Both the position numbers and the translations under genes were made by a program. Of a stretch of DNA of 64,000 bases, positions 3,031 to 44,532 are shown one piece after another (position 1 is the stretch's first letter; the number at the start of each line of letters is the position of its first letter). The stretch covers positions 1,344,001-1,408,000 of the forward strand of contig CAWEMM010000006.1 of the NCBI GenBank assembly GCA_963810095.1, read 5' to 3'. Below the pieces are notes generated by a model that saw only the letters and a program-made list of their open reading frames with translations, had not been told where the DNA came from and searched no databases. The DNA comes from an uncultured Chloroflexia bacterium. GTDB taxonomy: Bacteria; Chloroflexota; Anaerolineae; CG2-30-64-16.

Positions 3031-3067
3031 AAAAAGGACGCCGGGGTCTCGTTACCGGCCTTCGTCT
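3031..3067 (-). terminator. possible intra-operon terminator-like hairpin
   Basis: Minus strand reads GACGAAGGCCGG...CCGGCGTCC followed by TTTTT, between the surface-protein genes and ecfT. Confidence 0.4.
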
Positions 3068-3099
3068 GTGCCCTTCGTGCTGAGTGCCCAGGGAAGGCA

Positions 3100-4490: not shown

Positions 4491-4507
4491 CGGCGGCTCC
4501 TACGTGC

Positions 4508-5080: not shown

Positions 5081-5127
5081 AACGGATCCTCCTCTATTTG
5101 CAGGACGGCCGTTGGGCCGCCCCTGAA

Positions 5128-6193
5128 CTAACGCACCAGCAGCACGGGCAAGTACATCCTGCGGCACTCGCCGCCGGGCTGCCCCTGCGCCTGCAGCAAC
5201 CCCGCCAGCGCATCGGCGGTCGCCGTCAGGCGAATCTCTTCGCCGCCGGGCACGGCCGTGTAGACGAACGCGCCGCTCGCTTCCTGGAAGGCCAGCAGCG
5301 CCTGGAGCGCGCTCTTGCCGCCCTTGACGAACGGCGCGGCGTCCGGATTACGCCCGCTGGCCCGTAGCCCGCCGACCGCCAGGCCGGTCGAGTTCGCGTT
5401 CGGCGCCTTGGTGGTGGGTGCGGGCACGTCCGCCCACCCGGCCGTTTCTAACTGCGCCCGGGCCAAAAAGTCTGCCGCCGGCGCGAGCGTCACATCACAC
5501 GCCGCCAACGGGGCCCGTCCCAGCACTGTCAGCACCCGGCCGGTTGTGTCCACGTCGGACGGCGGTGGCGTCTTGCCCGGCAGGGGGAATGCCCAGGCCC
5601 AGCCCCCGTCTGCTAGCTGTGTCTGGCGCAAGGCCGAGTATGCCGGCCCGGGGACGGGCACGTTGGAGCGCTGGAGCGCTTCCACTGCGACCGTGTGGCG
5701 GTAAAGATAGCTCGGATGATACCGCCCGGTCGCCGGATCATAGGCCGCCTGAATCACGCCGATTAGGTCCATGCCACCGAACGCCCGGGGGTTACGTCCC
5801 GCCGCCGCGACGGCCACGCGCGACCTTGCCGGCTTGCCCCGCGTCCGACTTCGCGTAGGCCGGCGCCAGCTTCGCCAGCGCGTCCAGGGCGCTCTGGCCG
5901 TTCTTCGTCCAGGCCGGCCCGCCGGGGTCTTCGCCCGCCAGTGCCAGGGCAAAGACTACGTCGGCAGTCATGGCGGCGCTCGCTTTGCCGTTGACGCCGA
6001 ACGCCCCATCGTACAAATGCCCCGGGTCGGTCAGTTGCTGGGTGTGCAGCCACTGCACGGCCAGCGCCACCGGGTCGCCGGCAAGGGCCTGCACCGGATC
6101 AGCCGCAGCCAGACGCGGGGCGGGCGCCGCGATGGCAGCCAGCAGCACCGCGGCCGACAAAAGAAGGACCAGGTTTCTATTTAGCGTCCGCAT
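5128..6193 (-). CDS. secreted prenyltransferase/squalene-cyclase-repeat (alpha/alpha barrel) protein (frameshift near 5820)
   Basis: Signal peptide, QW-type repeats (WLHTQQ..DGAF, LRQTQLADGGW, LARAQLETAGW, LLAFQEASGAF), DVDTTG and NANSTG motifs, C-terminal MYLPVLLVR. Confidence 0.78.
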
Positions 6194-6333
6194 CAGAGCA
6201 CCCGGGAAAACAAAAAGCACCCCGGACCAAGGGGTGCTTGTGTCTCCTGAAAAAGGCCCGACACAACAAAAAACCCCTTGCCCGGCAGTGGCAAGGGGAG
6301 CGGCCGATCCGTGAACAGCACACACCTGTCCAC
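6193..6333 (-). CDS. putative leader peptide (about 46 aa) downstream of the cobalamin riboswitch
   Basis: GTG at 6333 (or 6342) follows a purine-rich GAGGTAAAGGGAG. The frame stays open through both terminator hairpins and its TGA overlaps the next ATG (TGATG). Confidence 0.5.
   Translation of the reverse strand: MDRCVLFTDRPLPLPLPGKGFFVVSGLFQETQAPLGPGCFLFSRVL
6205..6240 (-). terminator. intrinsic terminator 2 in the riboswitch leader
   Basis: AAGCACCCC-TTGGTCC-GGGGTGCTT followed by TTTGTTTT on the minus strand. Confidence 0.75.
6263..6298 (-). terminator. intrinsic terminator 1 in the riboswitch leader
   Basis: CCCCTTGCC-ACTGCCG-GGCAAGGGG followed by TTTTTTGTTG on the minus strand. Confidence 0.8.
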
Positions 6334-6339
6334 GGTTCC

Positions 6340-6495
6340 CACTCCCTTTACCTCGAAGGTCGTCGAGAACTGCGGCGGAGGCGGGTTTTCTGGCTCGCCC
6401 AAATGCAATGGGCCTACAGTTGCGGGACAGCGCCGGCTTGCCTGCCGTGGCAGGGCACCGGCTTTCCCCATTTCTCCACCGAAGCATATTCGTTT
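6340..6495 (-). promoter_or_regulatory. cobalamin riboswitch
   Basis: Minus strand contains GGGGAAAGCCGGTG...AAGCCGGCGCTGTCCCGCAACTGT...GAGCCAGAAAACCCGCC (B12 box) and a downstream CCTTCGAGGTAAAGG hairpin. It lies upstream of an ECF operon. Confidence 0.93.
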
Positions 6496-6551
6496 GTACG
6501 CTGGCCTAGCGTAGCACAGGAAGCGGGTGTCGTCAAATGACTTTCGTCATA

Positions 6552-7682
6552 TCAGCGCAACATCACCTCCTGCGCCCGTGCCCGCCCCGCGTCGGTCAGG
6601 ATCAAACGCGCCCCGTCGTCGACCCGCCGGATGAACCCCTGCCGGTCAAGTTGGCCCGCAACCGCTTCGCCAAACCCGTCGGGCCACCGCATGTGGCGCG
6701 CCATGTGCTCGACGGTTGCTTCGAGACCCGACGCAGCCGAATCTTGCAGCCCTCCGGCCTCGTGCTGCGAAAGGTGCACCAGGAGCATTTCACCGGCAAA
6801 CTGCCGGCGCTGCCGGCGGCGCAGCAGCGCCTTGCGTACCAGGCCGCGCTGGGGCGCGAACAGCAACGCCAGGAGAAACGCGACCCCGGTCATCGTCGCC
6901 ATGCTGCCCGCAATCGAGGCATCCAGCGCCCGCGCCAGCCCAAAACCCAGGACGGCCGAGAGCACTCCGATTCCAACCGACAGACCGAGCATCCGCGGCA
7001 GGCGGTCGGTGAGCAGGTACGCGGCCGCCGGGGGCGCGATCATCAGCGCCACGACCAGGACCGTGCCGGCTGCCTCGAACGAACTGACGGCCGTCACCGA
7101 AACCAGGGTCATCAGGCCGTAATGGATCACCACGGGCGAGAAGCCGAGCGCAGCCGCCAGCGCAGGATCGAACGTCGCCAGCTTCAATTCCTTATAGAAC
7201 AGGGTGATGAACAGCACGTTGAGCGCGCCGACGCCGAGCGCCAACCACAGCGCCTGCGGCCCGATGTCGACGCCGAACACGACCGTGCGGTTGAACGGCG
7301 CAAAGGCCAGCTCGCCCAACAGCACGGCATCCACGTCCAGGTGGACATTGGCGGCGTAACGCGTGATCAGGATGACGCCGAGCGAGAAGAGCAGCGGAAA
7401 GACGAGCCCGATTGCCGCATCCTCCTTGACCAGTTGCGTGCGCGTCAGCGCCTCGACCAGAACCACGGTCAGCACCCCCGTGACGGTCGCGGCCACGATG
7501 AGCAGGGGCGACGTGGTGCTCTCGACGACAAAGAACATCAGCACGATCCCAAACAGGATCGCATGGCTGATTGCGTCCGACATCAGCGCCATGCGCCGCA
7601 ACACGAGGAAGCTGCCAATCAGCGCGCAGCTTGCCGCCACCGCCGCCGCAATCAATACAATCTCAATCTGTGCCTGTACCAT
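6552..7682 (-). CDS. mntD: Mn/Fe/Zn ABC transporter permease with C-terminal helical extension (TroD/MntD-like)
   Basis: VLRRMALMSDAISHAILFG, HLDVDAVLLGEL and KELKLATFDP motifs. Confidence 0.88.
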   Translation of the reverse strand: MVQAQIEIVLIAAAVAASCALIGSFLVLRRMALMSDAISHAILFGIVLMFFVVESTTSPLLIVAATVTGVLTVVLVEALTRTQLVKEDAAIGLVFPLLFSLGVILITRYAANVHLDVDAVLLGELAFAPFNRTVVFGVDIGPQALWLALGVGALNVLFITLFYKELKLATFDPALAAALGFSPVVIHYGLMTLVSVTAVSSFEAAGTVLVVALMIAPPAAAYLLTDRLPRMLGLSVGIGVLSAVLGFGLARALDASIAGSMATMTGVAFLLALLFAPQRGLVRKALLRRRQRRQFAGEMLLVHLSQHEAGGLQDSAASGLEATVEHMARHMRWPDGFGEAVAGQLDRQGFIRRVDDGARLILTDAGRARAQEVMLR

Positions 7683-7696
7683 GCGTCTGCCTCATC

Positions 7697-7785
7697 TCAC
7701 CACCAAGGCCCGAAGCCACAAGGATTCACCGAGTCACGAAGATGCCTTCGTGTCGCCTCGTGTCTTCGTTTCTTTGTGGTTCATC
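7697..7785. repeat. REP-like imperfect palindrome, family A (CACCAAG/CACGAAG...CTTCGTG/CTTTGTGG)
   Basis: Similar element at 25217-25300 and a degenerate one at about 48942-49001. Confidence 0.65.
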
Positions 7786-8905
7786 ATCGTTCCATCGCCC
7801 GCCGCGCCGACTCGCGCCCCTTGTCGGTGAGCGCCAGCCGGTCGCCCGAACGCGTGATCAGCGCGCCGTCCTGCGCACGACTCACGACCGCCTCCGCGTA
7901 GCCGGGCGACCACCGCATGTGGCTGCTGGCATGGGCCACTTCCGACTCGAAGGCCGCGCCCGGCGCGCCGGCGGCAACAGCGCCCTCGTGCTGCAGCAGG
8001 TGGACCGCCAGCGCCTCCTGCGCAAACTGCCACTTCTGGCGCCGGCGCTGACGGGTGCGGGCGAGCAGCCCGCGGCGCGGGGCGAACAACAGCGAGAAAA
8101 GCACCACTGCGCTCATGTAGACCACAATCACGGGGCCGGTGGGCAGCCGGGGCACGAGACTGCTCGTGATCGCACCGAGCAGCCCCACCAGGGCGCCGAA
8201 CGCGCCCGCCAGGGGCACCATCACGTTCAGCTTCTCGGTCCACTGGCGGGCTGCCGAAGCCGGCGCGACGAGCATTGCGCTCATCAGCACCACGCCCACC
8301 GTTTGGATGCCCACCACGATCGCTACGACCATCAGCGTAATCAGCAAAATCTCGAGCATTTTGGCGGGGTACCCGAGGCTGGCGCCGAAATCCGGATCGA
8401 AGGTCAGCAGCTTGAACTCCTTCCAGAAGAGCATGACCAGCACAAGCGCCGCGCCGCCCAGCGCTGCCATGGTAATGAGGTCCCGGCCGAGCAACGTCGC
8501 TGCCTGCCCGAACAGAAACTTGTCCAGCCCGGCCTTGCCTGCGCTTGGCAGGCGCTGGATGAAGGTCAGCAGCAGCAGGCCGAACCCGAAGAAGACCGCC
8601 AGCGCGATCCCCAGCGCGGCATCCGGCTTGATGCGGGTGTGCCCGGTCACCTGGAGCACCAGCACCGTGGCCAGCCAGCCTGCGGCAATGGCGCCCAGCG
8701 CCAGCACCAACGGTTCTTTGCTGCCCGTGATCAGGAAGGCCAGCGCCACGCCCGGCAGCGCGGCATGGGAAATCGCATCCCCGAGCAAGCTCTGGCGGCG
8801 CAAGACGGCGAACACTCCCAGCACACCGCTGACGAGCCCCAGCAAGGCCGAACCGAGCGCCACCGTGCGCAGCGTGTAATCCGTAAAGAGTAAGAGCAAA
8901 TCCAT
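7784..8905 (-). CDS. mntC: Mn/Fe/Zn ABC transporter permease (TroC/MntC-like)
   Basis: VLRRQSLLGDAISHAALPG, GLDKFLFGQAA and KEFKLLTFDP motifs. Confidence 0.88.
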   Translation of the reverse strand: MDLLLLFTDYTLRTVALGSALLGLVSGVLGVFAVLRRQSLLGDAISHAALPGVALAFLITGSKEPLVLALGAIAAGWLATVLVLQVTGHTRIKPDAALGIALAVFFGFGLLLLTFIQRLPSAGKAGLDKFLFGQAATLLGRDLITMAALGGAALVLVMLFWKEFKLLTFDPDFGASLGYPAKMLEILLITLMVVAIVVGIQTVGVVLMSAMLVAPASAARQWTEKLNVMVPLAGAFGALVGLLGAITSSLVPRLPTGPVIVVYMSAVVLFSLLFAPRRGLLARTRQRRRQKWQFAQEALAVHLLQHEGAVAAGAPGAAFESEVAHASSHMRWSPGYAEAVVSRAQDGALITRSGDRLALTDKGRESARRAMER

Positions 8906-8945
8906 ACACTGACCTATCTGATGCGAGTCGGAAAGGAAGTCCGGT

Positions 8946-9767
8946 TCAACTAACCGGACTGATGCCTATGAGCCTCTCAGCAGAGGCATCCTGTGCATCA
9001 ATCGCACCGGTTTGCTCGGCGTTCGCTTCCGCCCTGCCCAGGAAAGCAATCCGCCCGCCGTACGCCCGGCGCAGGTTCTCTTCCGTGAACACCTCGGCCA
9101 CCGGCCCGCTCGCGATCCGCCGCACGTTCAGCAACATCACCCAGTCGAAGTATTCCGGCACGGTCTGCAGATCGTGATGGACGACGACCACGGTCTTGCC
9201 TTGCCGCCGCAGCTCGCGCAGCAGCGCCACGATGGCCCGCTCCGTCGTTGCGTCGACCCCGGCAAACGGCTCGTCCATCAGGTACACCCGCGCATCCTGC
9301 ACAAGCGCACGGGCCAGGAAAACCCGCTGCTGCTGCCCGCCCGAGAGCTGGCTGATTTGCCGGGCCGCGAAGTCGGCCATCCCCACCTTCGCCAGCGCTT
9401 CCATTGCCAGGTCGCGCTCCGCCTTGCCCGGCCGGCGCACCCAGCCCACCCGGCGATACAGGCCCATCGTCACCACGTCCAAGGCGTCCGTAGGAAAGTC
9501 CCAGTCGACGCTGCCGCGCTGGGGCACGTACCCCACCAGGCGCCGCTGTTCGGCGTAGGGCCGGCCGTAGATGCGCACCTGTCCCGCGGCCGGCGAAGCC
9601 AGCCCCAGCACGGTCTTCATCAGGGTCGACTTGCCCGCACCGTTGGGTCCAACGATAGCCATCAGCACCCCCTCGGGCGCCTCGAGGTCCACGTCCCACA
9701 GCACCGGTTTCTCGTGATACGCCACCGTCAGGTCGGTGGCCTCAATCGCCAACGCTCGCTCGTTCAT
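8946..9767 (-). CDS. mntB: Mn/Fe/Zn ABC transporter ATPase (TroB/MntB)
   Basis: [37 protein letters not shown]. Confidence 0.92.
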
Positions 9768-9788
9768 CCACTCATCTCCGGTCCGCCG

Positions 9789-10913
9789 TCAAAGCTCCGG
9801 CTTTTTCGAAACCACAGAGCTCTCGCCTAACAGGGCCCCAACAATCGTGTCGATGTTGTGCCGCACCATCCCGATATAGGTCCCCTCGGGCGTGCCTGCA
9901 CTGCCCATCGCGTCCGAGAACAACTCTCCGCCCACTTCGATGTCCCAGCCGCGTGACCGCACCGCAGCCTGCACCGCCTCGATGTTCCGCACGGGGACGG
10001 ACGACTCGATGAAAAGCGCCCGGATCTTGCGCTGCGCCAGGAAGTCGGCGAGTCCGCGCACGTCGGACGCGCCCGCCTCTGCGGCCGTGCTAATCCCTTG
10101 CAGCCCGCGCACCTCGAACCCGTACGCCCGGCCAAAGTAATTGAAGGCATCGTGAGCTGTAACCAGCACCCGCTGCTCGGGCGGCACCCGCTCGGCCTGC
10201 GCCTTGACATACCGGTGCAGATCCTCCAACTCGGCCAGGTACGCGGCGGCATTCGCCCGGTACGCTTCCGCGCTGCCAGGGTCCATCTCGACCAGCGCGT
10301 CGCGCACCCGCTCCACCGCCTTCATCCACAACGTCACGTCGAACCACACGTGTGGATCGTACTGCCCTTCAAACTGGGCCGGCTTCAGCAGCACGCCGCG
10401 ATCGATGTCGTCTGTGACGGCCACGGTCTTGATGCGCTCGCCCAGCCGCTCCAGGACTTCGGCCAGCTTCGCCTCCAGGTGCAGCCCGCCGTAGAAGATC
10501 ACGTCCGCCGTCCCCAGCCGGAGCACGTCGCCCTCGCTCGCCTTGTAGAGGTGCGGGTCGACTCCGGGGCCCATCAGCCCGGTCACCTGGACGCGGTCGC
10601 CGCCCACCTCGCGCACGATGTCCGTGATCATGCCGACCGTGGTCACCACCCGGATCGGACGGCCGGCCAGGTCGCCGGTTTGGGCCTGAGCGGGCGCGAC
10701 GCAGCCCGTGAGCAGCACGACGAGCAGCAGCAGCGCCGGCGCCGCAGCCCATCGGGAGCCGGACACCCTTCGACGGCGCACCATAAGTGGCGTTCCGCCC
10801 AGGATGCCTATCGCTGCTCCGAGGCCGGCCGCGCCCATGCCCGAACCGCCCAGAACGCCCCGCTCCGCTGCACGCAGGCGAAGGATGCGAATGCCCTGCC
10901 TGAATCCTCTCAT
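9789..10913 (-). CDS. mntA: Mn/Fe/Zn ABC substrate-binding lipoprotein (TroA/MntA); start uncertain
   Basis: Lipobox LTGC, GVDPHLYKAS, YDPHVWFD, TAHDAFNYFG and ELFSDAMG motifs. Confidence 0.9.
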   Translation of the reverse strand: MRGFRQGIRILRLRAAERGVLGGSGMGAAGLGAAIGILGGTPLMVRRRRVSGSRWAAAPALLLLVVLLTGCVAPAQAQTGDLAGRPIRVVTTVGMITDIVREVGGDRVQVTGLMGPGVDPHLYKASEGDVLRLGTADVIFYGGLHLEAKLAEVLERLGERIKTVAVTDDIDRGVLLKPAQFEGQYDPHVWFDVTLWMKAVERVRDALVEMDPGSAEAYRANAAAYLAELEDLHRYVKAQAERVPPEQRVLVTAHDAFNYFGRAYGFEVRGLQGISTAAEAGASDVRGLADFLAQRKIRALFIESSVPVRNIEAVQAAVRSRGWDIEVGGELFSDAMGSAGTPEGTYIGMVRHNIDTIVGALLGESSVVSKKPEL

Positions 10914-33507: not shown

Positions 33508-35073
33508 ATGATCGGCTATCAACTGCGCCAACGCGAATACCTGCTGCAAATCAGCCGGGCGATGACGTCCCGGCTGGATCTCCCGTCCCTGCTGCGCCTG
33601 ATCTTGACCAGCGCGGCCGATCTCGTGCGCGCCGAGGCAGGCGTGATTGCCCTGCGCCGCGGCCGTTCCTCGACCCTGGTCATACACGCGTCGTATGGCG
33701 TGCCGGTGGCGCTGTTGCCCAGGTTTGCACCCTTGCTGACCGATTTCCCGCTCAAGCCCGAGGAATACCGGGTTCCCGACCTGGAGGCTCGGCTGAACAT
33801 GGTGGCCCGGGCCGTCCGCCTGCCGCTGAGCCAAGTCATCGCGCTCCCGCTCATCGTCCACGACGGCCTGTCCGGGGTGATCTACCTGTTCCGCAGCGGC
33901 AGCATTGCGTTCACCGAAAACGATCAGGCCGTGCTCTCCAGCTTCGCCGACCAGGCGGCCATCGCGGTCCGCAACGCGCAACTCTACCAGCAGGTGAGCG
34001 CGGAAAAGCGCCAGCTTGACGCGGTGATCCAGCACAGCGCGGACGGCGTGATGATTCTCGATCCCGACCTGCGCATCCAAGTCTTTAACCAGGCATTGAG
34101 CCGCCTTTTGGGGTGGCCGGCAGACCAGGCCGTCGGCCGGCCCTGCTACCAGGTGCTGGCGCTGGAAGAAGTCGTGGGGGACGACCTGTGCAGCGCAGCC
34201 GGTGGCGAGGCTGTTTTCGCCGGCGGCCAGCCCAGGACGGCCGACGGTGTCGTCGTGCGACCGGGTGGCTCGCGCGTCTCGGTGAGCGTCACCTATTCGC
34301 CGCTGTACGACGAGGACGGGCGGCTGACGAACGTGATTGCGAACGTGGTGGATGTGACCCGCTTTCGTGAGGCGGAGGAAATGAAGGCCTCGTTCGTCTC
34401 GGTCATTTCTCACGAACTGAAGACCCCTGTGGCTCTGATCAAGGGGTATGCGAGCACGCTCGCGCGCGAGGACGCCGAGTGGGACCGGGAGACGCTGCGC
34501 GAGGGACTCCAGGTGATCGGCGAGGAGAGCGACCGCCTAAACGCCCTGATCAACAACCTGTTGGACGCCTCACGCATCCAAGCGGGCGGCTTTACCGTCG
34601 AGCGGGCCGACCTGGACCTGGCCGGGCTGGCCGCGTCCGTCGTCGAGAACTGGCGCATTCAAACCGAGCGCCACCGTTTCATCCTTGATTTCCCCCCGGG
34701 CTTTCCCGACGTAGAGGGTGACGAAGAGCGCCTGCGGCAGGTGCTGAACAACCTGCTGAACAACGCGATCAAGTACTCGCCCGAGGGCGGCGAGGTGCGG
34801 GTGGGGGGCTGGCGCGAGGGCGACCACGTGACGACATACGTCGCGGACCAGGGCATCGGCATTCCAGAGGCCGAGCAGGCCAACCTGTTCCAGCGCTTTT
34901 ATCGCGTCGATTCGAGCCTGCGCCGCTCGACGCAGGGCGCGGGGCTTGGGCTCTTCCTGTGCCGCTCCATTATCGAGGCGCATGGCGGGCGGATTTGGCT
35001 GCGAAGTGAGCCGGGCAAGGGTACGACCGTCTTCTTCACCCTGCCGGTCGCAGGCTCCAACGCGGGACGCTGA
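33508..35073 (+). CDS. cytoplasmic GAF-PAS sensor histidine kinase
   Basis: GAF region (FADQAAIAVRNA), PAS domain, SHELKTP H-box, NAIKYS, DQGIGI and GAGLGL motifs. Confidence 0.92.
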   Translation: MIGYQLRQREYLLQISRAMTSRLDLPSLLRLILTSAADLVRAEAGVIALRRGRSSTLVIHASYGVPVALLPRFAPLLTDFPLKPEEYRVPDLEARLNMVARAVRLPLSQVIALPLIVHDGLSGVIYLFRSGSIAFTENDQAVLSSFADQAAIAVRNAQLYQQVSAEKRQLDAVIQHSADGVMILDPDLRIQVFNQALSRLLGWPADQAVGRPCYQVLALEEVVGDDLCSAAGGEAVFAGGQPRTADGVVVRPGGSRVSVSVTYSPLYDEDGRLTNVIANVVDVTRFREAEEMKASFVSVISHELKTPVALIKGYASTLAREDAEWDRETLREGLQVIGEESDRLNALINNLLDASRIQAGGFTVERADLDLAGLAASVVENWRIQTERHRFILDFPPGFPDVEGDEERLRQVLNNLLNNAIKYSPEGGEVRVGGWREGDHVTTYVADQGIGIPEAEQANLFQRFYRVDSSLRRSTQGAGLGLFLCRSIIEAHGGRIWLRSEPGKGTTVFFTLPVAGSNAGR

Positions 35074-35107
35074 AGGTGCAGGAGCCAGCTGAGGATCCAG
35101 GAGCAAG

Positions 35108-35809
35108 ATGAAGAAACGCATCCTTGTCGTCGACGACGAGCCGCGCATGCGCCGCTTCGTGCGCATGAACCTGGACCTGGAAGGGTACGAGGTGCTGGAG
35201 GCGGACAATGGGCTGGTCGCACTGCAGAAGGTGCGCGACGACATGCCCGACCTGGTCCTGCTCGACGTGGCCATGCCCGAGATGGACGGGTTCGAGACGC
35301 TGGAGCGCATCCGCGAGGTCTCGGCCGTCCCCGTGATCATGCTCACCGTCAAGAGCGACGAGGACGACCGTATCCACGGGTTGGACTTGGGCGCGGACGA
35401 CTACGTGACCAAGCCCTTCAGCCCCCGGGAGTTGTCGAGCCGCATTCGGGCGGTGCTGCGCCGGGTGGAGCCGGCCAAGGGCAGTGTCGAAGAGCCGCTG
35501 GTGATCGACGAAGATCTGCAGATCGACTTCCCGCGGCGAACCGTCATCGCGCGGGGCGAGCCCGTCAAGCTGCGGCCCACCGAATACCGGCTGCTGCTAC
35601 ACCTGGTCGAGAACGCGGGCTGGATCGTGCCCCAGGAAACGCTGCTGTCGAAGGTGTGGGGACCGGAGTACCGGGACGACAACCAGCTGTTGCGCCTGTA
35701 TATTACCTACCTGCGGAAGAAGATCGAGCCGGACCCGGCCAACCCGAGGTACATCCTCACGGAGCGCGGCGTCGGTTACCAGTTCACGAACTACAAGAAG
35801 GCTGCCTGA
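35108..35809 (+). CDS. OmpR/KdpE-family response regulator
   Basis: [27 protein letters not shown] and winged-helix TERGVGY motifs. Confidence 0.93.
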
Positions 35810-36121: not shown

Positions 36122-37531
36122 CTACGCGAGCCGCACGGCCAGCGGAATGCGGCCCGACGCCGGCGGCTGCCAGGGGAGGGGGCCGACAACCGTCGCGCCC
36201 GGCCCGAGCATCGGCGCCGCAAACTGCGCAGCGCATTCCCAAGGGGCGGCATCGGCACGCCGGAAGCAGACTTCGCCGGTGATCCCGTAGAGATATGCAA
36301 GACCGGGATTCGTGACCCGGACGTAGAGCGCGTTTTCGTGCCCCACCTCGGCCGCCTGTGCCTGGCTCCCGCCATCGGGCCTCTGGCGCAGCCACACATC
36401 CGCGCTGCCTGTGATCAGGCCCCCCTCAGACTTGCCGTAGACCACTGGGTGCCCGGCTGGATTGCGGCGGGCTGAGAAGATCGTCGAGGCATACCGGCTG
36501 ACGTAGGCGTACGGGATGTAGCCGTAGCCGGGCTGCCAGACGCCGTCCCACGCCCACGGCTGCCATGAGTTGCGCAGCAGGAAGTAGCCGCCGCCGGGCG
36601 CCCGTGGGTCGTCCTGATACCCCACTATGGTCATCGCGTGCCCCTCGCGCATCGGCTCGCCGGCCAGGGGCAGCGTGATCTTGCCCCAGCGCGTCATAGC
36701 CGACGACTTGAACCAGCTGTCGAAGACGGGCAGGGAGAAGGCGATACTCCGCCCTTCGACCAGGCACGCTTTCATCCCGGCGATGTCGGTGCGGCTAAAC
36801 TCCTGCGCGGGCTGGATGGCAAAGCCGAGGTCGCCGCCCGCGGCCAGCGGCGGCGGTGCGGCGAGGTCAGAGCCGGTCGCAGGCTGTGGCACGTAAGGCC
36901 AGAGTGCTTCGAGCGGCGCGCCCGCCTCGCCAAGGCAGCGCATGCCCAGTGACAGGTAGGTGCCGCTTCGTCCGGGTAACCCATCCCGCTCCTTGCACCA
37001 CCAGTAGACGTACTCCTCGGAGAGGTCCAGGTCGTGGGGCGCGCCGGCGGCAAGTTCGAGCTGCTCTCGCAGGGCCAGGACGGCATGCGCCACGCAGGTC
37101 GGGCGCTTGCCCTGGCTGCGCAGTGGGGGAAGTTGGTCCAGGAGATGGTGGCTGATCGGAAGCGGGAGGCGGCTTTCGGCGACGTACGGCGGCAGCGCGG
37201 CCATGCGTGCAGCGGTGACGGCCGGATCTTCGAGGAGCGCGCCCAGGGGGTAATCGGCAGCCGCCGTTTCCATTTCAAGGGCGGCGTCGACGCCGCGGCG
37301 CGCGGGCAGGGTGAGCCGTTGTGCGGCGCTAACGATCGTGTCGAGGCGCGGCCGCTCCAGGCCGAGCATCGAAGCCAACCGAGTGCGGGTGGCCTCGTTC
37401 GTGCCGTAGATGCCGACCAGTTGTGGCGCACTGTCGATCCACAGATCGTTCAGTGTCTGCACCTGGCCGGCATCGAGGCCGGGCACGGCCGAAAGTGGGG
37501 CGGACGCGGGTATCAGATCAGGCGGAAACAC
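36122..37531 (-). CDS. C1 (papain-family) cysteine peptidase with N-terminal HhH-like region
   Basis: SQGKRPTCVAHA (Gln/Cys), DLSEEYVY, GHAMTIVGY (His), LRNSW (Asn) and GYGYIPYAYV motifs. Confidence 0.85.
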   Translation of the reverse strand: MFPPDLIPASAPLSAVPGLDAGQVQTLNDLWIDSAPQLVGIYGTNEATRTRLASMLGLERPRLDTIVSAAQRLTLPARRGVDAALEMETAAADYPLGALLEDPAVTAARMAALPPYVAESRLPLPISHHLLDQLPPLRSQGKRPTCVAHAVLALREQLELAAGAPHDLDLSEEYVYWWCKERDGLPGRSGTYLSLGMRCLGEAGAPLEALWPYVPQPATGSDLAAPPPLAAGGDLGFAIQPAQEFSRTDIAGMKACLVEGRSIAFSLPVFDSWFKSSAMTRWGKITLPLAGEPMREGHAMTIVGYQDDPRAPGGGYFLLRNSWQPWAWDGVWQPGYGYIPYAYVSRYASTIFSARRNPAGHPVVYGKSEGGLITGSADVWLRQRPDGGSQAQAAEVGHENALYVRVTNPGLAYLYGITGEVCFRRADAAPWECAAQFAAPMLGPGATVVGPLPWQPPASGRIPLAVRLA

Positions 37532-37540
37532 GCTCGTCCC

Positions 37541-38720
37541 TTAGATGACGCCCATCTCCTTGCCCACCTTCTCGAAGATCGCCAGCACGCGGTCCATCTG
37601 CTCGAAAGTGTGCGTCGCCATGTAGCTGGTGCGCAAGAGCTCGCGGCCGGGCTGGACCGCGGGAGCCAGTACCGGGTTCACAAACACGCCCTCGTCGAAC
37701 AGGCGCCGCCACATGAAGAGCGTGAGCATCTGCTCGCCAAGGATAACTGGAATGACGGCGGTTGTCGAGGTGCCGATGTTGAAGCCCAGCCGCCGGTAGC
37801 CGTCACGCATGTAGTCAGCGATCTTGCACAAGTGCTCGACCCGTTCCGGCTCCTCGCGCATGATCTTCAAGGATGCGAGGGCCGCCGCCGCGTTCGAGGG
37901 CGGGATGCTGGCGCTGAAGAGGAGCGACCGTGCGTGATGCTTGATGTAGTGCACCACGGGCTCGTCGCCGGCGATAAAGCCGCCCAGCGATGCGAACGAC
38001 TTGCTGAAGGTGGACATCACCAAGTCGATGTCGCGCGTCATGTGGAAGTGCTCGCCTGTGCCCCGCCCGCAACCCAATACGCCGATCGCGTGTGCATCGT
38101 CGACCAGCAGCCGGGCGCCGTACTTTCGGCACAGGGGGATCAACTCGGGCAGCGGCGCGATATCGCCTTCCATACTGTACAGCCCATCCACACACACCAA
38201 CTTGCCTTTGTCTTCGGGCAGCCGCTCCAGGATGCGCTCTAGCTCCGCCATGTCCTGGTGGGCGAACCGCTTGGTCTCGCCGTAGCTCAGCTTTGCGCCG
38301 TCGACCAGGCTGGCGTGATCCTCTTTGTCGAGGATGACGTAGTCTCCGCGGCCGATCAACGCGCTCGATGGCCCCGAGGTTAGCCTGCATGCCGGTGGAG
38401 AAGACGACGGCCGATTCCTTACCCACGAAATCCGCCAGCTCGTGCTCGAGCTGCTCGTGCATCTCCAGCGTCCCGTTGAGGAATCGCGAACCCGTGCAGC
38501 TGGTTCCGTAACGTTTGATCGCCTGGATGGCCGCCTCGCGGACCCGCGGATCGGTGGTCAGCCCGAGGTAGTTGTTGGAGCCGCACATGATGAGGCGGTG
38601 GCCCTTATAGACTGCCTCCGAGCCCTCGTTTTCGGTCAGCGGGATGAAGTAGGGATAATAGCCGGCCGCAATGGCCTCTTTGGCTTCGGTGAATTCGTGC
38701 GTTTTGGCGAAAAGATCCAT
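37541..38720 (-). CDS. spt: serine palmitoyltransferase-like alpha-oxoamine synthase (frameshift near 38362)
   Basis: [43 protein letters not shown] and [11 protein letters not shown] (PLP Lys) motifs; adjacent to bCerS-like and KDSR-like genes. Confidence 0.8.
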
Positions 38721-38809
38721 GAGTGCTCCTTCAGCTAGGGGTCGAGTCCTATCCTGTGGCGTGCACGGGGGTGAATGCCGCCGTGTACGTCACAGATACA
38801 GACGTGACC

Positions 38810-39790
38810 TCAGGTAAGGTAACCGTGTTCCCGATACCAATGATACGCCCGTTCTGCCGCCTCGCGGAAAGGAAGAATGGGAAACCCGAGTTCGGTCACG
38901 GCTTTGCCTGAGTCAAAAAAGACATTGTGCGCGGAAAGTCGAAGCTGGTCACCACTGGCCATCGGGCGGGGGATAAACCGGTTAGCCAGGTCCAGCACAG
39001 TCGCCGCCGGCGGCAGCGCCCAGCCGGGAATGATCCAGGCAGGCGGGCGGGTGCCGACGATATCGGAAATGATAGCAGTAATCTGGCGATATGTCAGGTT
39101 TTCGCCCCCCAGGATGTATCGCTCGCCTACCCGGCCCAGTTCGGCGGCCGCGAGGTGCCCCGCGACGACCGCATCGATGTCGACCATGCACAGGCCCCCC
39201 GGCGGACAGCCGGGCAGGGGCCGCTTTGCCATTTCCACGATCAAGCTGCCTGAGATCAGGTTATGGTCGCCCGGGCCCATGACTGCGGCGGGGTTGACGA
39301 TCACGGCGGGCAGTCCCAGCTTGACCGCCCTGGCCACCTCCAATTCGGCGAGGTGCTTGCTGTGGGCGTAGGCGAAACCCTTCTCGCGCGCGTCGAAGGG
39401 CTGGCTTTCGTCCGACGGCCTTCCGTCGCGCCGCACGCCCACGGCCGCGGCGGACGAAGTATGCACGACGCGCGAAACGCCCGCCCGCAGGCACGCATCC
39501 ATGACGATCCGGGTGCCTTCGACGTTCACCCGGCGAACGGCTGCTTCGTTCGAGCGCCAATAGGATGAAACGGCCGCGACGTGGAAGACCCGGTCGCAGC
39601 CGTCGACGGCGGCCCTGACCGCACCGGCGTCGAGAATGTCGCCGTGGACATGCTCGACCGGGAGGCCGTCCAGCGCGATGGTGCTCGAGTTCTTCCGCCT
39701 TAAGATGCGGACGTCGTCTCCCCGGCGGACGAGCGCGGCGGCCAGTTGGCTGCCGACGAACCCTGTCGCGCCGGTGACCAGCACCTTCAC
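38810..39790 (-). CDS. NAD-dependent epimerase/dehydratase (HpnA/dihydroflavonol-reductase-like; candidate ceramide reductase)
   Basis: VTGATGFVG, VFHVAA, HTSSAAA and YAHSK motifs. GTGA overlap with the upstream gene. Confidence 0.8.
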   Translation of the reverse strand: MKVLVTGATGFVGSQLAAALVRRGDDVRILRRKNSSTIALDGLPVEHVHGDILDAGAVRAAVDGCDRVFHVAAVSSYWRSNEAAVRRVNVEGTRIVMDACLRAGVSRVVHTSSAAAVGVRRDGRPSDESQPFDAREKGFAYAHSKHLAELEVARAVKLGLPAVIVNPAAVMGPGDHNLISGSLIVEMAKRPLPGCPPGGLCMVDIDAVVAGHLAAAELGRVGERYILGGENLTYRQITAIISDIVGTRPPAWIIPGWALPPAATVLDLANRFIPRPMASGDQLRLSAHNVFFDSGKAVTELGFPILPFREAAERAYHWYREHGYLT

Positions 39791-40920
39791 AGAGGCTTCT
39801 CGTAGATGCGGTAGGTCTTGTACTTACGGCCGCCCATGCGCTCGATGATCGTGTTCATCATCGTGTTGGTTTCCAGGATCCACGAGCCTTCGACGCGCTT
39901 GTAGCCGTGTTTGAGGGCTTCCTGGGCCGTCTCCAGGTAGAAGATGGCATCTACGCCGAGGCCGCGGTACTCCTCGATCATGCCCATGATCATCAAGCGG
40001 CACTGGTCGATGTGGCGCCGCGCGAGCAGGAACTTGGGCAGGCCGAGCGGCCACATGTGCCCTCCGCCCGAGCGCTTGAGCGCCTGGTGCAGGTCGGGCA
40101 TGGTGAGCGACACGCCCGCGGGCCTGCCGTCCGCAGTTTCGGCGATAAAGATGAGGTTGGGATCGACCATCGGCTTGAGGCTGCCGACTAGGTGGTCGAT
40201 CTCGTGGTCGGTAAGGGGCACGAAGCCCCAGTTCTTCTGCCACGCGCCGTTGTAGGCCGCCTTGATGAGCGCAATCTCCGAGTCCAGGTGCTTCATGTCG
40301 ATCTTGCGCACGCGCAGGCCGTGCCGCTCCATCGCCTTCTTGGAGACTCGGTACAGTTTCTGGGGCGCCTCGTCCAGAGCCTTCTGGATGTCGTAGATCC
40401 AGGCGAACAAGTCCATCGCCTTGACGTACCCGTGGCATTCGATCAAGGCGGGATAGTAACGCGGGTTGTGGGTAAGCATGAGCATCGGCGGAGTATCAAA
40501 ACCGTCGATCAGGGTGCCCACCTCGTCGTTCGTCGAGAAGTTCAGGGGGCCGCGGATGAGGTTCATCCCCTGCAAGCGGCACCAATCCTCTGCGGTCTGG
40601 AAGAGCGCGCCCGCAACTTCGGGGTCGTTGACCGATTCGAAGAAGCCCCAGCCGCCGGCCAGCTCGTTGTGCACCCGGTTATGGTTGTCGTTGACCACGC
40701 CGCCGATGGTCCCGACGATCTTCCCCGCCCGGCGAGCGACGAAAAGCTGGTAGCGCGAGTGCTCGTAGAAAGGGTTCTTTTTGGTGTCGAAGAATGCGAG
40801 TCGTTCCTCGATCAGGGGCGGCACCCAGCACGGGTCGTCCTGGTAGAGCTTGAAAGGAAACTGCACATACGCGGACAGCCCTTTGCGGCTATTGACGGCT
40901 TCGATGTCGATGTTGCTCAT
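39787..40920 (-). CDS. GNAT-like protein, bacterial ceramide synthase (bCerS/YghO-like)
   Basis: FPFKLY..WVPPL, NPFYEH, GFFESVND, RGPLNFSTNDEVG, HNPRYY, WQKNWGFVP, SWILETN and KTYRIY motifs. Confidence 0.8.
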   Translation of the reverse strand: MSNIDIEAVNSRKGLSAYVQFPFKLYQDDPCWVPPLIEERLAFFDTKKNPFYEHSRYQLFVARRAGKIVGTIGGVVNDNHNRVHNELAGGWGFFESVNDPEVAGALFQTAEDWCRLQGMNLIRGPLNFSTNDEVGTLIDGFDTPPMLMLTHNPRYYPALIECHGYVKAMDLFAWIYDIQKALDEAPQKLYRVSKKAMERHGLRVRKIDMKHLDSEIALIKAAYNGAWQKNWGFVPLTDHEIDHLVGSLKPMVDPNLIFIAETADGRPAGVSLTMPDLHQALKRSGGGHMWPLGLPKFLLARRHIDQCRLMIMGMIEEYRGLGVDAIFYLETAQEALKHGYKRVEGSWILETNTMMNTIIERMGGRKYKTYRIYEKPL

Positions 40921-40936
40921 GGTGCCTCCTCTGACG

Positions 40937-41767
40937 TTATTCCTGTCGAGGCTCGTGCTTGCGACGGGCCCGCCCAATGAGTTGGTCGAGTACGGGGAAC
41001 TGCAGGTCGCCGAGCAGGCTGGCGGCCCGGGCCGCGGCGCTCATTTCCAGCCCGGGCACGATCGAATAGCGGTTGTGGCGTATGCCGTGGAGGATTTCGC
41101 GCGCGACGTACTCAGGCGAAACGACCGTGCCGCCGTAGACGTCGTGGGCCTCGGGAGGGCGGAGGGGGACTTCCCCTGTGAGCTGCGGTGTGTCGGTGTC
41201 TGGCGGATAGACTACGGCGACGTGGATGCCGTACGGCTTGAGCTCGATCCGCAGCACGTCGGACAGCCCCCGGAGCGCGCACTTGGACGCCGCGTACGCG
41301 GTGTAGCCATACGTCGGGAGCAAGGCTGCGCCTGAGGCAACATTGACGATAAAGCCCGCCCGCCGTTCGATCATGCCGGGCATCACGGCTTTAATCACGT
41401 GCAACGCACCGAAGTAGTTGACGTCCATCATCTCGTGAAAGACGTCAAGATCCAGGTCCGCGAAATAGCCGGGGTGGGTGACGCCGTGCGAGTTGACGAC
41501 GATGTGGGGGAGCCCCACCCGGCGCGTTACTTCGGCGACCGCGGCGGCGGCTTGTGCAGGGTCGGCCACGTCGGCCGCCGTCGCGCCGCACACCTGATCG
41601 GGCCGTGTGCAAGCGGCCTTGACTTCGTCCAGGGCCTGTGCCAGGCGTTCCCGGTTGCGGGCCACCAGCCAGACATGGGCTTCTTCGCGGGCAAAAGCGC
41701 GGGCAGCCGCCAGTCCGATGCCGCTGGAGCCGCCCGTGATGAGAATGACTTGGTTACGGAAGGTCAT
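40937..41767 (-). CDS. SDR resembling 3-ketodihydrosphingosine reductase (KDSR/Tsc10-like)
   Basis: ITGGSSGIG, MDVNYFG, YTAYAASKCALRGL and the KDSR-type YPPDTDTP motif. Confidence 0.78.
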   Translation of the reverse strand: MTFRNQVILITGGSSGIGLAAARAFAREEAHVWLVARNRERLAQALDEVKAACTRPDQVCGATAADVADPAQAAAAVAEVTRRVGLPHIVVNSHGVTHPGYFADLDLDVFHEMMDVNYFGALHVIKAVMPGMIERRAGFIVNVASGAALLPTYGYTAYAASKCALRGLSDVLRIELKPYGIHVAVVYPPDTDTPQLTGEVPLRPPEAHDVYGGTVVSPEYVAREILHGIRHNRYSIVPGLEMSAAARAASLLGDLQFPVLDQLIGRARRKHEPRQE

Positions 41768-41819
41768 GAAATGAATGCTCGAGCGCGCGTGGGTACGTAC
41801 GCGAGGTAAGATTATGTGT

Positions 41820-41849
41820 ATTATATAACACCGGCGGGTCGCGATGCAA
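41820..41849 (-). promoter_or_regulatory. promoter of the sphingolipid operon (TTGCAT-18-TATAAT)
   Basis: AT-rich patch about 50 nt upstream of the SDR start. Confidence 0.55.
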
Positions 41850-41918
41850 GCGCCATGAACGAACGGACTGGGCCTTAAGGCCAGTCTACGTGGGCCGTCC
41901 CGGCCGTGCGCCGGAGAG

Positions 41919-44477
41919 TCAGGACTTTAAGCTGGCCCGCAGCAAGGCTTTGGTCAGTTCCTTCGTGTCCAGGGCGTAGTCATGCTCGAGCACCGGCCCC
42001 ACGCAGGCGGGACAGCCGTTGTCGCATGGGCAGTTCGTGACCAAATCGAGCGCCGCGGCCAGCACATCGGGCATCGATTGGAAAAGCTGCTCGGCGTAGC
42101 CGACTCCGCCGGGCGTGCGCTCGTAGATCGTAATGGCGGGGCCGCCCGTGTTCCGGTCTTCTGGCTCGGCCAGCACGCCGAGGTCGCGGCCGTCACACAT
42201 GAGGAAGAGCGGTGCGACGCCCTCGATCAAGGCCGCCGCGCCGCCGAGCCCCGACCGCGTCCGGATGCCGGACTCGGCCCGGTGGTGGCACGACTGGCAC
42301 AGCGTCACCAGGTTATCGTGGCGGTTTGCGACCTTCCAGGCGAGGGCAGCAGGCAGCCCTTCGCGCCGTGCTTCGTCGGCGACGAACGCACGGAAGGGGA
42401 CCTTGTGGTGCACGTCGTGCTGGCGGCCCGCCATCTCTAACGTGCCGCACCCCTGGCAGCGGTAACCGTCGCGCAGGCGCACGGCGTCGCGGGTGGCGGC
42501 CCATTCCGGTCCGTAGTCGTTCGGGTCAGATAGCCACGCGCCGGCGGCTTTGAGCGCCTCGACCGTACGTTCGGGAAAAGCCAGCCAGGCCGCCTGTGTG
42601 TCCAGGATCTGTTCGGGCAGGTCGATCTCCCCGTAGCCGAGCACCTCGTTCGAGCCGCGCTGCAGGATCTTGTAGCTTGTCGCCTGCGAGGTAACCCGCA
42701 CGTCGCCCCAGCCGAGCAAGTAGGGCGCGGCTTCGTCCTCCATTCTCCCGCGCGCTTGCAGCACGTCGATTCTTTCGCCTATGACGGGGCGAGTGTAGAA
42801 GGCGGCCTCGATGCCGCGAACGGCCGCGATCCCCGCTTCCCAGTCGAGCCGTTCGACCACGTACGACGCGCCTTCGTGGAGATAGATCGCGCCTTCGTAT
42901 AGCAGCAGTGGGACTCCTTCGCGATCCAACTCGCCGATGACGACGGGTTTTCCGTCTTCGCCGCGCGCCTGGATCAGCACCCGGTCGCTGCCTGCGCTCC
43001 GCAGGCTGACCGCTTGCGTCGGGCTGCCCTCGCCGGCCCAGAAGTAGCGCCCGCCTGATAAGTAGAGCTGTCCGGCCTCGACCATATCTGTAAGCAGCCC
43101 GGGCACCGCGGCTGAGCCAAACTTCTCTTCTTGCCCCAGCGGCAGCTCGGCTGCGGTGCAAGCCAGGTGACCGGCGAGGATCACCTCGTTGTCCGGGTTG
43201 ACACGAGCGTGCTCGGGCGACTGCTGGAGCAGCCAGCGCGGGTGGGTAATGACGTACTGGTCGAGCGGCCCGGCGCCGGCGACGAGCACTGCTACGGAAG
43301 CGCCTTGCCGCCGGCCGGCCCGCCCCATCTGCTGGCGGGCGCTGGCGATGGTTCCCGGATGGCCGGCGAGGATGGCTGCATCGAGGTCGCCGATGTCGAT
43401 GCCCAACTCAAGCGCGTTCGTCGCAACCACTCCCCGCACTGTTGCCTCTCGCAGCCCTTTTTCGATCTCCCGCCGGTCTGCCGGCAGGTAGCCACCCCGG
43501 TAGCCACGGACGGTGTGCCGCGCCTGGCGGGGCAATTCGTCGTGCAGGTGGGTCAGCATCAGCTCTGTGGCAAGCCGGGCGCGACCGAAGAGGATCGTCT
43601 GCACGTCGTGGCGGAGGAAGTGGGCCGCAAGCTCGGCGGATTCCTGAACGGTGCTGCGGCGGATGCCCAGGTCCGGGTCGACGACCGGCGGGTTGTAAAA
43701 GAGGATGTGCTTTTCGCCCTGGGGTGCGCCGTCCTGCTCCGGTCCGACAACGGTGACCGGGGCTTCGACCAGCCGCTCGGCCAACTCGCCCGGGTTGGCG
43801 ATCGTGGCAGAGGCGAGGACGAACTGGGGCCGGCTGCCGTAGAACGCGCAGAGACGGCGCAAGCGGCGCAAGACGTTCGCGACGTGCGAGCCGAACACGC
43901 CCCGGTAAACGTGCATTTCGTCCACAACCACGACGCGGAGGGAGGCGAAGAACGCGGCCCAGCGGGGGTGCTGGGGCAGGATGCCCATGTGCAGCATGTC
44001 GGGGTTCGAGAGGATGATGCGCGACGTATCGCGAATCCTGGTTCGCTGCGCCGACGCCGTGTCGCCGTCGTAGGCCGCAGGGAGCAGGGACAATTCTGCC
44101 AGGCGTGCGAGCGCGCTCACTTCGGCTAACTGGTCGTGCGCGAGCGCCTTCGTCGGGAACAGGTACAGGGCCCGAGCCCGAGGCTCGGATAGTAGCCGCT
44201 GGAGCACGGGGAGGTTGTAGCAGAACGTCTTGCCGCTGGCGGCCGGGGTCGCGACGGCAACGTTTTCGCCCCGCAGTGCGGCTTCGACTGCCGCGGCCTG
44301 GTGCTCGTAGAGTGCGTGGATGCCGCGCGACGCCAGTGCCGCCCCAATGCGAGCGTCGAGCCCGGCGGGAGCGGGTTGATAACGGGCGGGCCGGGCGGGC
44401 AGCCGTTCCCAGCGCACCACGTTGCTCATAAAGCGCGGGTCCAGGCGCAGCGCCTGAAGCGCGGATTCTACAGACAT
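41919..44477 (-). CDS. MrfA/YprA/SftH-family DEAH helicase with DUF1998 Zn domain and inserted HNH domain
   Basis: TPAASGKT, DEMH, ATNALELGID, QQMGRAGR and C-terminal CPCDNGCPAC motifs. Insert RDGYRCQGCG..HDVHH..NLVTLCQSCHH. Confidence 0.9.
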   Translation of the reverse strand: MSVESALQALRLDPRFMSNVVRWERLPARPARYQPAPAGLDARIGAALASRGIHALYEHQAAAVEAALRGENVAVATPAASGKTFCYNLPVLQRLLSEPRARALYLFPTKALAHDQLAEVSALARLAELSLLPAAYDGDTASAQRTRIRDTSRIILSNPDMLHMGILPQHPRWAAFFASLRVVVVDEMHVYRGVFGSHVANVLRRLRRLCAFYGSRPQFVLASATIANPGELAERLVEAPVTVVGPEQDGAPQGEKHILFYNPPVVDPDLGIRRSTVQESAELAAHFLRHDVQTILFGRARLATELMLTHLHDELPRQARHTVRGYRGGYLPADRREIEKGLREATVRGVVATNALELGIDIGDLDAAILAGHPGTIASARQQMGRAGRRQGASVAVLVAGAGPLDQYVITHPRWLLQQSPEHARVNPDNEVILAGHLACTAAELPLGQEEKFGSAAVPGLLTDMVEAGQLYLSGGRYFWAGEGSPTQAVSLRSAGSDRVLIQARGEDGKPVVIGELDREGVPLLLYEGAIYLHEGASYVVERLDWEAGIAAVRGIEAAFYTRPVIGERIDVLQARGRMEDEAAPYLLGWGDVRVTSQATSYKILQRGSNEVLGYGEIDLPEQILDTQAAWLAFPERTVEALKAAGAWLSDPNDYGPEWAATRDAVRLRDGYRCQGCGTLEMAGRQHDVHHKVPFRAFVADEARREGLPAALAWKVANRHDNLVTLCQSCHHRAESGIRTRSGLGGAAALIEGVAPLFLMCDGRDLGVLAEPEDRNTGGPAITIYERTPGGVGYAEQLFQSMPDVLAAALDLVTNCPCDNGCPACVGPVLEHDYALDTKELTKALLRASLKS

Positions 44478-44532
44478 GGTTGGATTATAATCCATGCCCC
44501 CCGAACGCGCTGGCCTGGGTGGGCGGGCTGGG

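Follow-up and report, generated by a model that had tools for sequence, protein, structure and literature searches.

A four-gene cluster in the genome of an uncultured Chloroflexia bacterium (Chloroflexota; Anaerolineae) probably constitutes an operon for the biosynthesis of sphingoid bases and dihydroceramide in Anaerolineae-type Chloroflexota (probability roughly 0.8), with its substrates, cofactor and order of steps inferred from homology. The cluster lies at positions 37541–41767 of a 64,000-nucleotide stretch of contig CAWEMM010000006.1 (assembly GCA_963810095.1, positions 1,344,001–1,408,000; hereafter, the window, to which all coordinates refer unless another contig is named). Its four genes run head to tail on the minus strand and encode a classical short-chain dehydrogenase/reductase (SDR) of the KDSR family (41767..40937; 276 aa), a tandem-GNAT N-acyltransferase of the bCerS/YghO family (40920..39787; 377 aa, start MSNIDIE), an extended SDR annotated as an 'epimerase' (hereafter, EPI; 39790..38810; 326 aa), and an alpha-oxoamine synthase, Spt (38720..37541, both parts). 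EPI is HpnA-like and, as the proposed 3-keto reductase, occupies the position of CerR. The genes are tightly packed, with 16 nt between SDR and GNAT, a 4-nt overlap between GNAT and EPI, and 89 nt between EPI and Spt. Among 24 loci of the same family, GNAT, EPI and Spt are collinear in 21 (the remainder being two contig ends and genome G008), and therefore this arrangement is not a chance one. Searches of the Protein Atlas yielded generic family names and phylum ranges only. The proposal draws on sequence, synteny and co-occurrence, and the enzyme activities and lipid products are accordingly given as predictions.

The alpha-oxoamine synthase belongs with Spt at the family level, and serine condensation is its predicted reaction. 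Both halves of the protein, which are separated in the assembly by an extra base (see below), match Aminotran_1_2 (Pfam), and the C-terminal part carries DDAHAIG and the pyridoxal phosphate (PLP)-lysine motif TFSKS; by the Pfam match and the lysine motif, the protein has the fold of PLP-dependent alpha-oxoamine synthases. Its best NCBIfam family is Spt NF047600 (149.5 + 345.6 bits for the two halves, compared to 89.3 + 256.1 bits for bioF). Among solved structures, the best match of the C-terminal part is the Sphingobacterium SPT (3a2b; 282 bits), and other solved SPTs score 206.7–216 bits, compared to 206.5 bits for the best chain named BioF/Kbl (7poa/8s1y), 171.5 bits for a cysteate-C-fatty acyltransferase, and 163.5 bits for the best Kbl (3tqx). 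The first-pass annotation of this DNA had named a grouping of the synthase with BioF or Kbl as an outcome that would speak against a sphingolipid operon. In a quick maximum-likelihood tree of 46 sequences (thinned from a collection of 83 by removing every second non-reference row), the window protein instead fell into a Spt clade (Shimodaira–Hasegawa-like approximate likelihood-ratio test [SH-aLRT] 96) with all retained Chloroflexota orthologs, the Spt of the Sphingomonas parapaucimobilis cluster, the synthase of the E. coli yghO cluster, and a Streptomyces cluster synthase. This clade also takes in the cluster-linked synthases of nearly all other phyla, with one Acidobacteriota sequence (L117) placed just outside, and it excludes E. 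coli K-12 BioF, E. coli K-12 Kbl, and two paralogs from the host genome. The identification as Spt thus rests on family, structural match and clade placement together.

These data also bear on whether serine is the amino acid used. If the synthase condensed cysteate, alanine or glycine instead, the product would be a sulfonolipid, a 1-deoxy lipid or another N-acyl amino-lipid. Such a preference would fit the scores below the curated Spt cut-offs and the presence of the cysteate-C-fatty acyltransferase (171.5 bits) among the solved relatives, and 1-deoxy and sulfated ceramides are reported, in the available text of PMC11334938, from environments rich in such bacteria. Against it, all solved SPTs outscore the cysteate enzyme and the protein groups with the Sphingomonas Spt within the Spt clade, and we consider another amino acid substrate improbable.

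The first-pass annotation treated the synthase as one intact gene and missed that its reading frame is broken. The N-terminal part (38720..38367, minus strand; 118 residues, frame A, read directly and ending ...NLGAI) and the C-terminal part (38365..37541, minus strand; 274 residues, frame B, beginning at SALIGRGDY) lie in different frames, separated by a single extra base (G on the minus strand) at 38366, directly after an ATC codon. Ten relatives read ...NLG[AT]ISAL... in a single frame without this base. When contigs of four public sequencing runs were aligned to the region, one 343-nt contig from run X5 (on 38330–38673, with one other difference and a depth of 2.7) skipped exactly one base at 38366; this near-identical contig is environmental and comes from another study, and none of the contigs listed for runs X1–X3 spans 38317–38376. 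A genuine frameshift in this strain would make Spt a fresh pseudogene in a decaying operon, and the assembly as given does carry the extra base, which is absent only from the one low-depth contig of another study. However, neither half shows any other damage, and they are 92% identical to the G001 ortholog. Unrelated indels also occur in the same genes in few-contig assemblies of the same genus: a separate 1-nt insertion is found in G002 (L050) some 20 nt beyond this position, and G001 (L070) is fragmented throughout, with broken genes for the helicase, SDR, GNAT, EPI and the peptidase. In addition, the host genome is only 88.5% complete despite comprising just 16 contigs. We therefore regard a decaying operon as a slim prospect, and the extra base is very probably a long-read consensus error introduced in assembly. 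In either case, the frameshift is an assembly error or a strain-specific lesion and not a feature of the system. As a practical observation, few-contig assemblies of this genus are full of single-base indels in coding regions, and gene calls from them need frameshift-aware handling.

The GNAT-like protein is a member of the bCerS/YghO family, for which N-acylation of sphinganine or 3-ketosphinganine is predicted. Its start was placed at MSNIDIE, where the database copy (P0001) also begins; a TTG further upstream, at 40977, is less likely to be the start. The stretch EYRGLGVDA fits R/Q-x-x-G-x-G/A, the coenzyme A (CoA)-binding pattern of GNAT proteins. General searches returned little: no NCBIfam family and only weak Pfam GNAT matches, a single chance-level match among PDB sequences (E 0.21), and no characterised protein among the cluster members of ten distant representatives, which bore only the names of metagenome-assembled genomes (MAGs; Gammaproteobacteria and Acidobacteriota). 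Full-length relatives in named organisms were found by tblastn of a plasmid collection. The protein is 37% identical to E. coli YghO (99% coverage) and 36% identical over its full length to an N-acetyltransferase of the S. parapaucimobilis cluster (E 8e-74). Alongside the latter gene lie those for an NAD(P)H-binding protein, an acyl carrier protein (ACP), a 420-aa Spt, lptF and lptG, and the E. coli yghO locus comprises genes for a fatty acyl-AMP ligase, an epimerase-family protein, an ACP and a class I/II aminotransferase together with lptG and lptF (i.e., aasR-, cerR-, acpR- and spt-like genes). A Streptomyces plasmid carries synthase, GNAT and epimerase genes in that order. Because the Fig. 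9 legend of PMC9386255 lists 'aca: CC_1154, yghO ECD_02850' and 'epi: CC_1164, ECD_02852' as required for dihydroceramide synthesis, YghO can be tied to the Caulobacter ceramide synthase CC_1154; the comparison with Caulobacter runs through YghO rather than through a direct alignment with CC_1154.

Genomic context and predicted structure agree with this assignment. A scan of species-representative genomes identified 80 loci of other phyla (Bacteroidota, Zixibacteria, Ignavibacteriota, Gemmatimonadota, Myxococcota, Acidobacteriota, Nitrospirota, and others) with 41–52% identical GNAT homologs; a Spt-like gene is adjacent in 51, an extended SDR is nearby in 43, and the GNAT gene stands alone in 27, some of them on short contigs. 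The linkage to spt that characterizes bCerS is thus found in 21/24 loci of the family and 51/80 loci of other phyla. The AlphaFold model is a tandem GNAT (mean predicted local distance difference test score 93.9), and its nearest solved folds are tandem-GNAT amine N-acetyltransferases (11–15% identity; query-normalised template-modelling scores 0.58–0.63). The YghO family extends well beyond bCerS, with 8333 representatives at E <= 0.001. The host genome itself contains a second full-length YghO-family paralog (31–32% identity; G000:C9:612331-613425, plus strand) and a partial third copy (G000:C6:1541901-1542449, plus strand), neither of which adjoins a match to an alpha-oxoamine synthase. Double-length members of the family also occur (P0241, 784 aa; P0265, 780 aa), and two separate segments of P0241 align with the query, pointing to a tandem fusion of two enzymes of this kind.

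The first gene of the cluster encodes a KDSR-family SDR for which NADPH-dependent reduction of 3-ketosphinganine is predicted. It shows the features of a classical SDR (adh_short [Pfam], 165.8 bits), with the cofactor motif TGGSSGIG, Arg37, Ser145 and Tyr158-x3-Lys162, and it carries VVYPPDTDTPQL at residues 185–196, in which YPPDTDTP occupies residues 187–194. Many of 120 listed homologs bear the JGI label '3-dehydrosphinganine reductase'. When a profile built from 40 family members was compared to PDB sequences, the best single-domain match was Cryptococcus Tsc10 (8jat; 148.7 bits, compared to 138.4 bits for the next), which is the only solved KDSR. A search with residues 100–276 against proteins of >310 aa recovered named eukaryotic KDSRs (Dictyostelium, Tieghemostelium, Lottia, Octopus, Owenia, Bugula) at 36–46% identity over those residues; identity to eukaryotic KDSRs is 30–33% over the full length, compared to 40–46% over the C-terminal two thirds. 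PPDxDTP (P188, P189, D190, D192, T193, P194), Ser145, Tyr158, Lys162 and Arg37 are invariant in 11/11 aligned sequences, seven of them eukaryotic. The motif is insufficient on its own, given that two 32%-identical homologs carry it in genomes in which no Spt ortholog was found. A quick tree of 50 hand-picked sequences placed the bacterial family and the eukaryotic KDSRs in a single clade of 39 rows (SH-aLRT 99) on a long stem, with 11 SDR paralogs from the host genome outside it. The claim in the first-pass annotation that this is a eukaryote-type KDSR with PPDTDTP is therefore borne out by clade, motif and profile match, and both motifs that it quoted are present in the translations. Within the KDSR clade, eukaryotic sequences and bacterial groups branch as a polytomy, an arrangement in which a bearing of this gene on the origin of eukaryotic KDSR is only a possibility.

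The first-pass annotation overlooked that the KDSR-like gene is accessory within the family: an ortholog is found in 16/24 genomes, and 8/24 (93–99% complete) have none at E <= 1e-40, and thus the product of the core cluster, whatever it may be, does not depend on this gene. In 15/24 loci, the gene has the helicase gene on one side and the GNAT gene on the other; G008 instead shows helicase, SDR, Spt and peptidase in succession, with SDR directly beside Spt. A survey of synteny across Chloroflexota, which the first-pass annotation had recommended, recovered coupling of the KDSR-like gene to Spt in three families. In an even sample of 301 Chloroflexota genomes, 20 had a KDSR-like match; among the 19 foreign loci of this sample, the gene is directly beside Spt in seven, six of them from family f18 and one from family f20 (L182), both of which are other families of the same class. 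In four other f20 loci (L177, L180, L181, L183), it stands beside a helicase homolog with Spt located elsewhere, and five further f20 genomes with a KDSR-like gene all proved to have an unlinked Spt ortholog (61–69% identity).

This uneven distribution raises the alternative that the cluster makes sphingolipids but that its KDSR-family SDR is not the 3-ketosphinganine reductase, and either reduces some other carbonyl (in the acyl chain or head group) or is simply a gene of the helicase neighborhood. Its absence from the eight genomes that keep GNAT, EPI and Spt fits this view, as do the f20 loci, where it neighbors the helicase homolog four times and Spt only once, the homologs in G032 and G055 without a detected Spt ortholog, and the absence of any KDSR-like homolog from the 80 GNAT-centred loci of other phyla. 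The clade shared with eukaryotic KDSR and the leading profile match to Tsc10 argue the other way, and so does the fact that the gene directly adjoins Spt, with no other pathway gene between them, in the six f18 loci, L182 and G008. Furthermore, Spt is present in every f20 genome tested. On balance, we find a role outside long-chain-base reduction unlikely for the SDR, and retain it as a putative 3-ketosphinganine reductase.

The identity of the second reductase is less straightforward. EPI has the extended-SDR features of CerR (GATGFVGS at residues 7–14, Y141-x3-K145) and matches Epimerase (112.5 bits) and 3Beta_HSD (96.9 bits) in Pfam. Its best curated family is HpnA (TIGR03466), which it matches end to end with 314.1 bits, short of the cut-off of 367.65, followed by SdmB with 226 bits; nine cluster-linked reductases of other phyla, including those of Sphingomonas and Streptomyces, score 83–168 bits on the HpnA model. 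A quick tree with long branches, comprising 65 rows after the removal of one partial row, grouped the cluster-linked reductases in a clade of 40 rows that included Sphingomonas and Streptomyces (SH-aLRT 95), and 20 EPI proteins of the family formed a separate clade (SH-aLRT 99), with paralogs from the host genome between the two on long branches. EPI is 29–32% identical to the Sphingomonas, Streptomyces and E. coli proteins. Reciprocal BLAST gave mixed results: EPI is the best match in its own genome for cluster reductases of Zixibacteria, Gemmatimonadota and Bacteroidota, and another paralog is the best match for the CerR-type queries of Sphingomonas, E. coli and Streptomyces. Because of the HpnA-like scores, the separate clade and the mixed reciprocal BLAST, we do not file EPI as CerR. 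The second reductase of the first-pass annotation is thus not demonstrably CerR. EPI is nonetheless expected to work like CerR.

A hopanoid-pathway function as HpnA was rejected on context, given that the score is below the TIGR03466 cut-off and that no squalene-hopene cyclase match was found in the host genome (88.5% complete). More broadly, EPI could be a sugar epimerase or dehydratase of the HpnA type, or could modify lipids in some other way, and not be a long-chain-base keto-reductase at all, leaving the reduction to the KDSR-like SDR or to an unlinked enzyme. The ranking of HpnA over SdmB, the position of EPI outside the clade of cluster-linked reductases from other phyla, and the existence of a paralog that better matches the Sphingomonas, E. 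coli and Streptomyces queries are all in keeping with this. They are countered by the failure to find a hopene cyclase in the genome, by the overlap of the EPI start with the GNAT stop and the collinearity in 21/24 loci, which link EPI to spt and bcerS (in G031, EPI adjoins Spt), and by the reciprocal matches to the Zixibacteria, Gemmatimonadota and Bacteroidota reductases. OleD and SdmB, two related NCBIfam families, are presumably reductases of lipid keto groups, which we also count against it. A function of EPI outside keto-reduction therefore seems to us a minor possibility. The nearest paralog of EPI in the quick tree is a 985-aa open reading frame (G000:C6, minus-strand offsets 781819-784774), in which a domain at residues 478–729 is 37% identical to EPI.

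Taken together, the four proteins suggest a pathway in which the PLP-dependent Spt would condense serine with an acyl thioester to form 3-ketosphinganine, the tandem-GNAT bCerS/YghO-family enzyme would N-acylate the amine with acyl-CoA, and the 3-keto group would be reduced by one or both of two reductases, EPI and the KDSR-family SDR. The latter would act on free 3-ketosphinganine with NADPH, as in eukaryotes, and thus two step orders would be possible within one operon. In the eight genomes of the family in which no KDSR homolog was found, EPI is the only candidate reductase. That this organism would have both reduction routes is plausible.

Several observations weigh against a sphingolipid operon of this composition. 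The summed Spt score of about 495 bits falls short of the NF047600 cut-off of 640, a comparison in which the models are lineage-specific (CFB, Alpha and Beta) and the gene was scored in two pieces. Spt is broken in the assembly, its intact form appearing in the single X5 contig of depth 2.7, and the cluster contains no acpR or aasR homolog. EPI lies outside the CerR-type clade and scores near the HpnA cut-off. Nor is the coupling between the genes strict: G035 encodes a 51%-identical GNAT homolog without a detected Spt ortholog, eight near-complete genomes of the family dispense with the KDSR-like gene, and no Spt ortholog was found in G032 and G055, which have KDSR-like genes (45% and 47% identity, respectively), or in G127 and G180, which have homologs with PPDTDTP (32–34% identity).

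Two conserved genes, both co-directional with the cluster, flank it. Upstream, an 858-aa MrfA-type DEAD-box helicase (41919..44495, minus strand) with DEAD, Helicase_C and the MrfA Zn-binding domain (Pfam) ends 151 nt before the SDR gene; it is syntenic in loci of the family and is probably a conserved neighbor that is functionally unrelated to the pathway. Downstream, a 469-aa papain-like cysteine peptidase (36122..37531, minus strand) starts 9 nt past the Spt stop. It has no Pfam match and resembles the cysteine protease 3ois (PDB; E 3.3e-15), and it follows Spt in 14/21 collinear loci of the family and lies about 3.3 kb further on in G018 (L047). The 151-nt gap between helicase and SDR (41768..41918, minus strand) is a possible promoter region. 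The first-pass annotation had described four packed co-directional genes behind one promoter; the gene layout is as it stated, with tight spacing on the minus strand, but a single promoter found no backing, because a sigma-70 consensus scan, which is ill-suited to this phylum, returned no promoter-like site in the gap. The same scan, uninformative for this phylum, reported two promoter-like sites, both intragenic, and no terminator-like site on the minus strand. Just downstream of the cluster region (33508–35809, plus strand), a 521-aa protein and a 233-aa protein are encoded in succession; judged by their translations alone, the first is sensor-kinase-like and the second resembles an OmpR-type response regulator. 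One X5 contig also showed a 566-nt skip (40242 to 40809), which, with 26 letters on its shorter side and 90% likeness, was treated as probably derived from another organism or a repeat. The Chloroflexota origin proposed from the sequence alone is upheld by the named homologs, which are Chloroflexi or Anaerolineae MAGs, and no lpxC was found in the host genome (88.5% complete), which fits a cell without lipopolysaccharide (LPS).

The closest known system is the ceramide cluster of Caulobacter, Sphingomonas and E. coli B (spt CC_1162, cerR CC_1164, bcerS CC_1154 = yghO), which shares with the window a linked Spt-clade synthase, a YghO-family tandem GNAT (36–37% identity) and an NAD(P)-dependent extended SDR. 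Unlike that cluster, the one described here has no acpR, aasR or second lptF/G genes, its EPI is HpnA-like and outside the CerR-type clade, it includes an additional KDSR-family SDR, and no lpxC was detected in its host. A complete Caulobacter-type cluster (lptF, lptG, spt-like gene, acp, epimerase, acyl-AMP ligase, yghO) was also observed in the E. coli record NZ_MG591698.1 (L165, filed as a plasmid; 2343-10122), and it matches the published E. coli B cluster. Given that E. coli strains, BL21 among them (PMC9386255), carry such a cluster, hosts of this kind offer no clean background for the reconstitution of sphingolipid synthesis. Compared to HpnA (TIGR03466), the best-scoring curated family for EPI, the context in the window is different, comprising Spt and bCerS with no hopene cyclase found in the genome.

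With eukaryotic KDSR/FVT1 and Tsc10, the window SDR has in common the classical SDR fold, Ser-Tyr-Lys, Arg37, the invariant PPDxDTP and the joint clade (SH-aLRT 99), but it lacks the hydrophobic N- and C-terminal extensions of the eukaryotic sequences, and in fungal Tsc10 (chain 8jat), LPCGISGP stands where the motif would be. Among bacteria, the SDR BT_0972 of Bacteroides thetaiotaomicron has been proposed to reduce 3-ketosphinganine before N-acylation (PMC9278070). The available text of that paper describes BT_0972 as only a partial Tsc10/FVT1 homolog, with 16–30% identity among candidates, that is not clustered with SPT. By this published description, the window SDR is set apart from it as a clear KDSR-family member located in or next to an spt operon. 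Chloroflexota as candidate sphingolipid producers were already published in 2024, and the Spt–bCerS–CerR cluster is known: according to the available text of Ding et al. (2024, ISME J, PMC11334938), sphingolipid production was predicted for 218 MAGs of Black Sea Chloroflexota (Anaerolineae) on the basis of homology to Spt-like, bCerS and CerR sequences. The main text of that paper contains no instance of 'KDSR', although its supplements may list such genes. In the searched literature, which did not extend to supplements, we found no Spt-linked bacterial homolog of eukaryotic KDSR.

The order of the bacterial ceramide steps is disputed (acylate then reduce vs. reduce then acylate), and bacteria are said to lack homologues of the eukaryotic enzymes other than Spt, according to the available text of PMC11087976. 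In this setting, the cluster adds a clear KDSR-family gene that is physically linked to spt in three families of Chloroflexota and is accompanied here by a bCerS-type acyltransferase and a different second reductase, and it provides a four-gene natural system in which both step orders can be tested. More tentatively, and as a reading that we hold to be less probable than not, the KDSR homolog may be the physiological 3-ketosphinganine reductase, such that a eukaryote-order route (Spt, KDSR, N-acylation) would operate in the cytoplasm of an LPS-less cell, a non-orthologous HpnA-like reductase would give a Caulobacter-order route in parallel or in KDSR-less lineages, and eukaryotic KDSR would share a direct ancestor with the bacterial family. 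If this were true, the eukaryotic pathway would have a second bacterial homolog in addition to Spt. The bacterial sequences also add a sister group for rooted phylogenies of eukaryotic KDSR. The host belongs to a soil or sediment lineage that is abundant in sediments, and its predicted sphingolipids have a bearing on environmental lipid markers, as which such lipids are discussed in the available text of PMC11334938 and PMC12619533.

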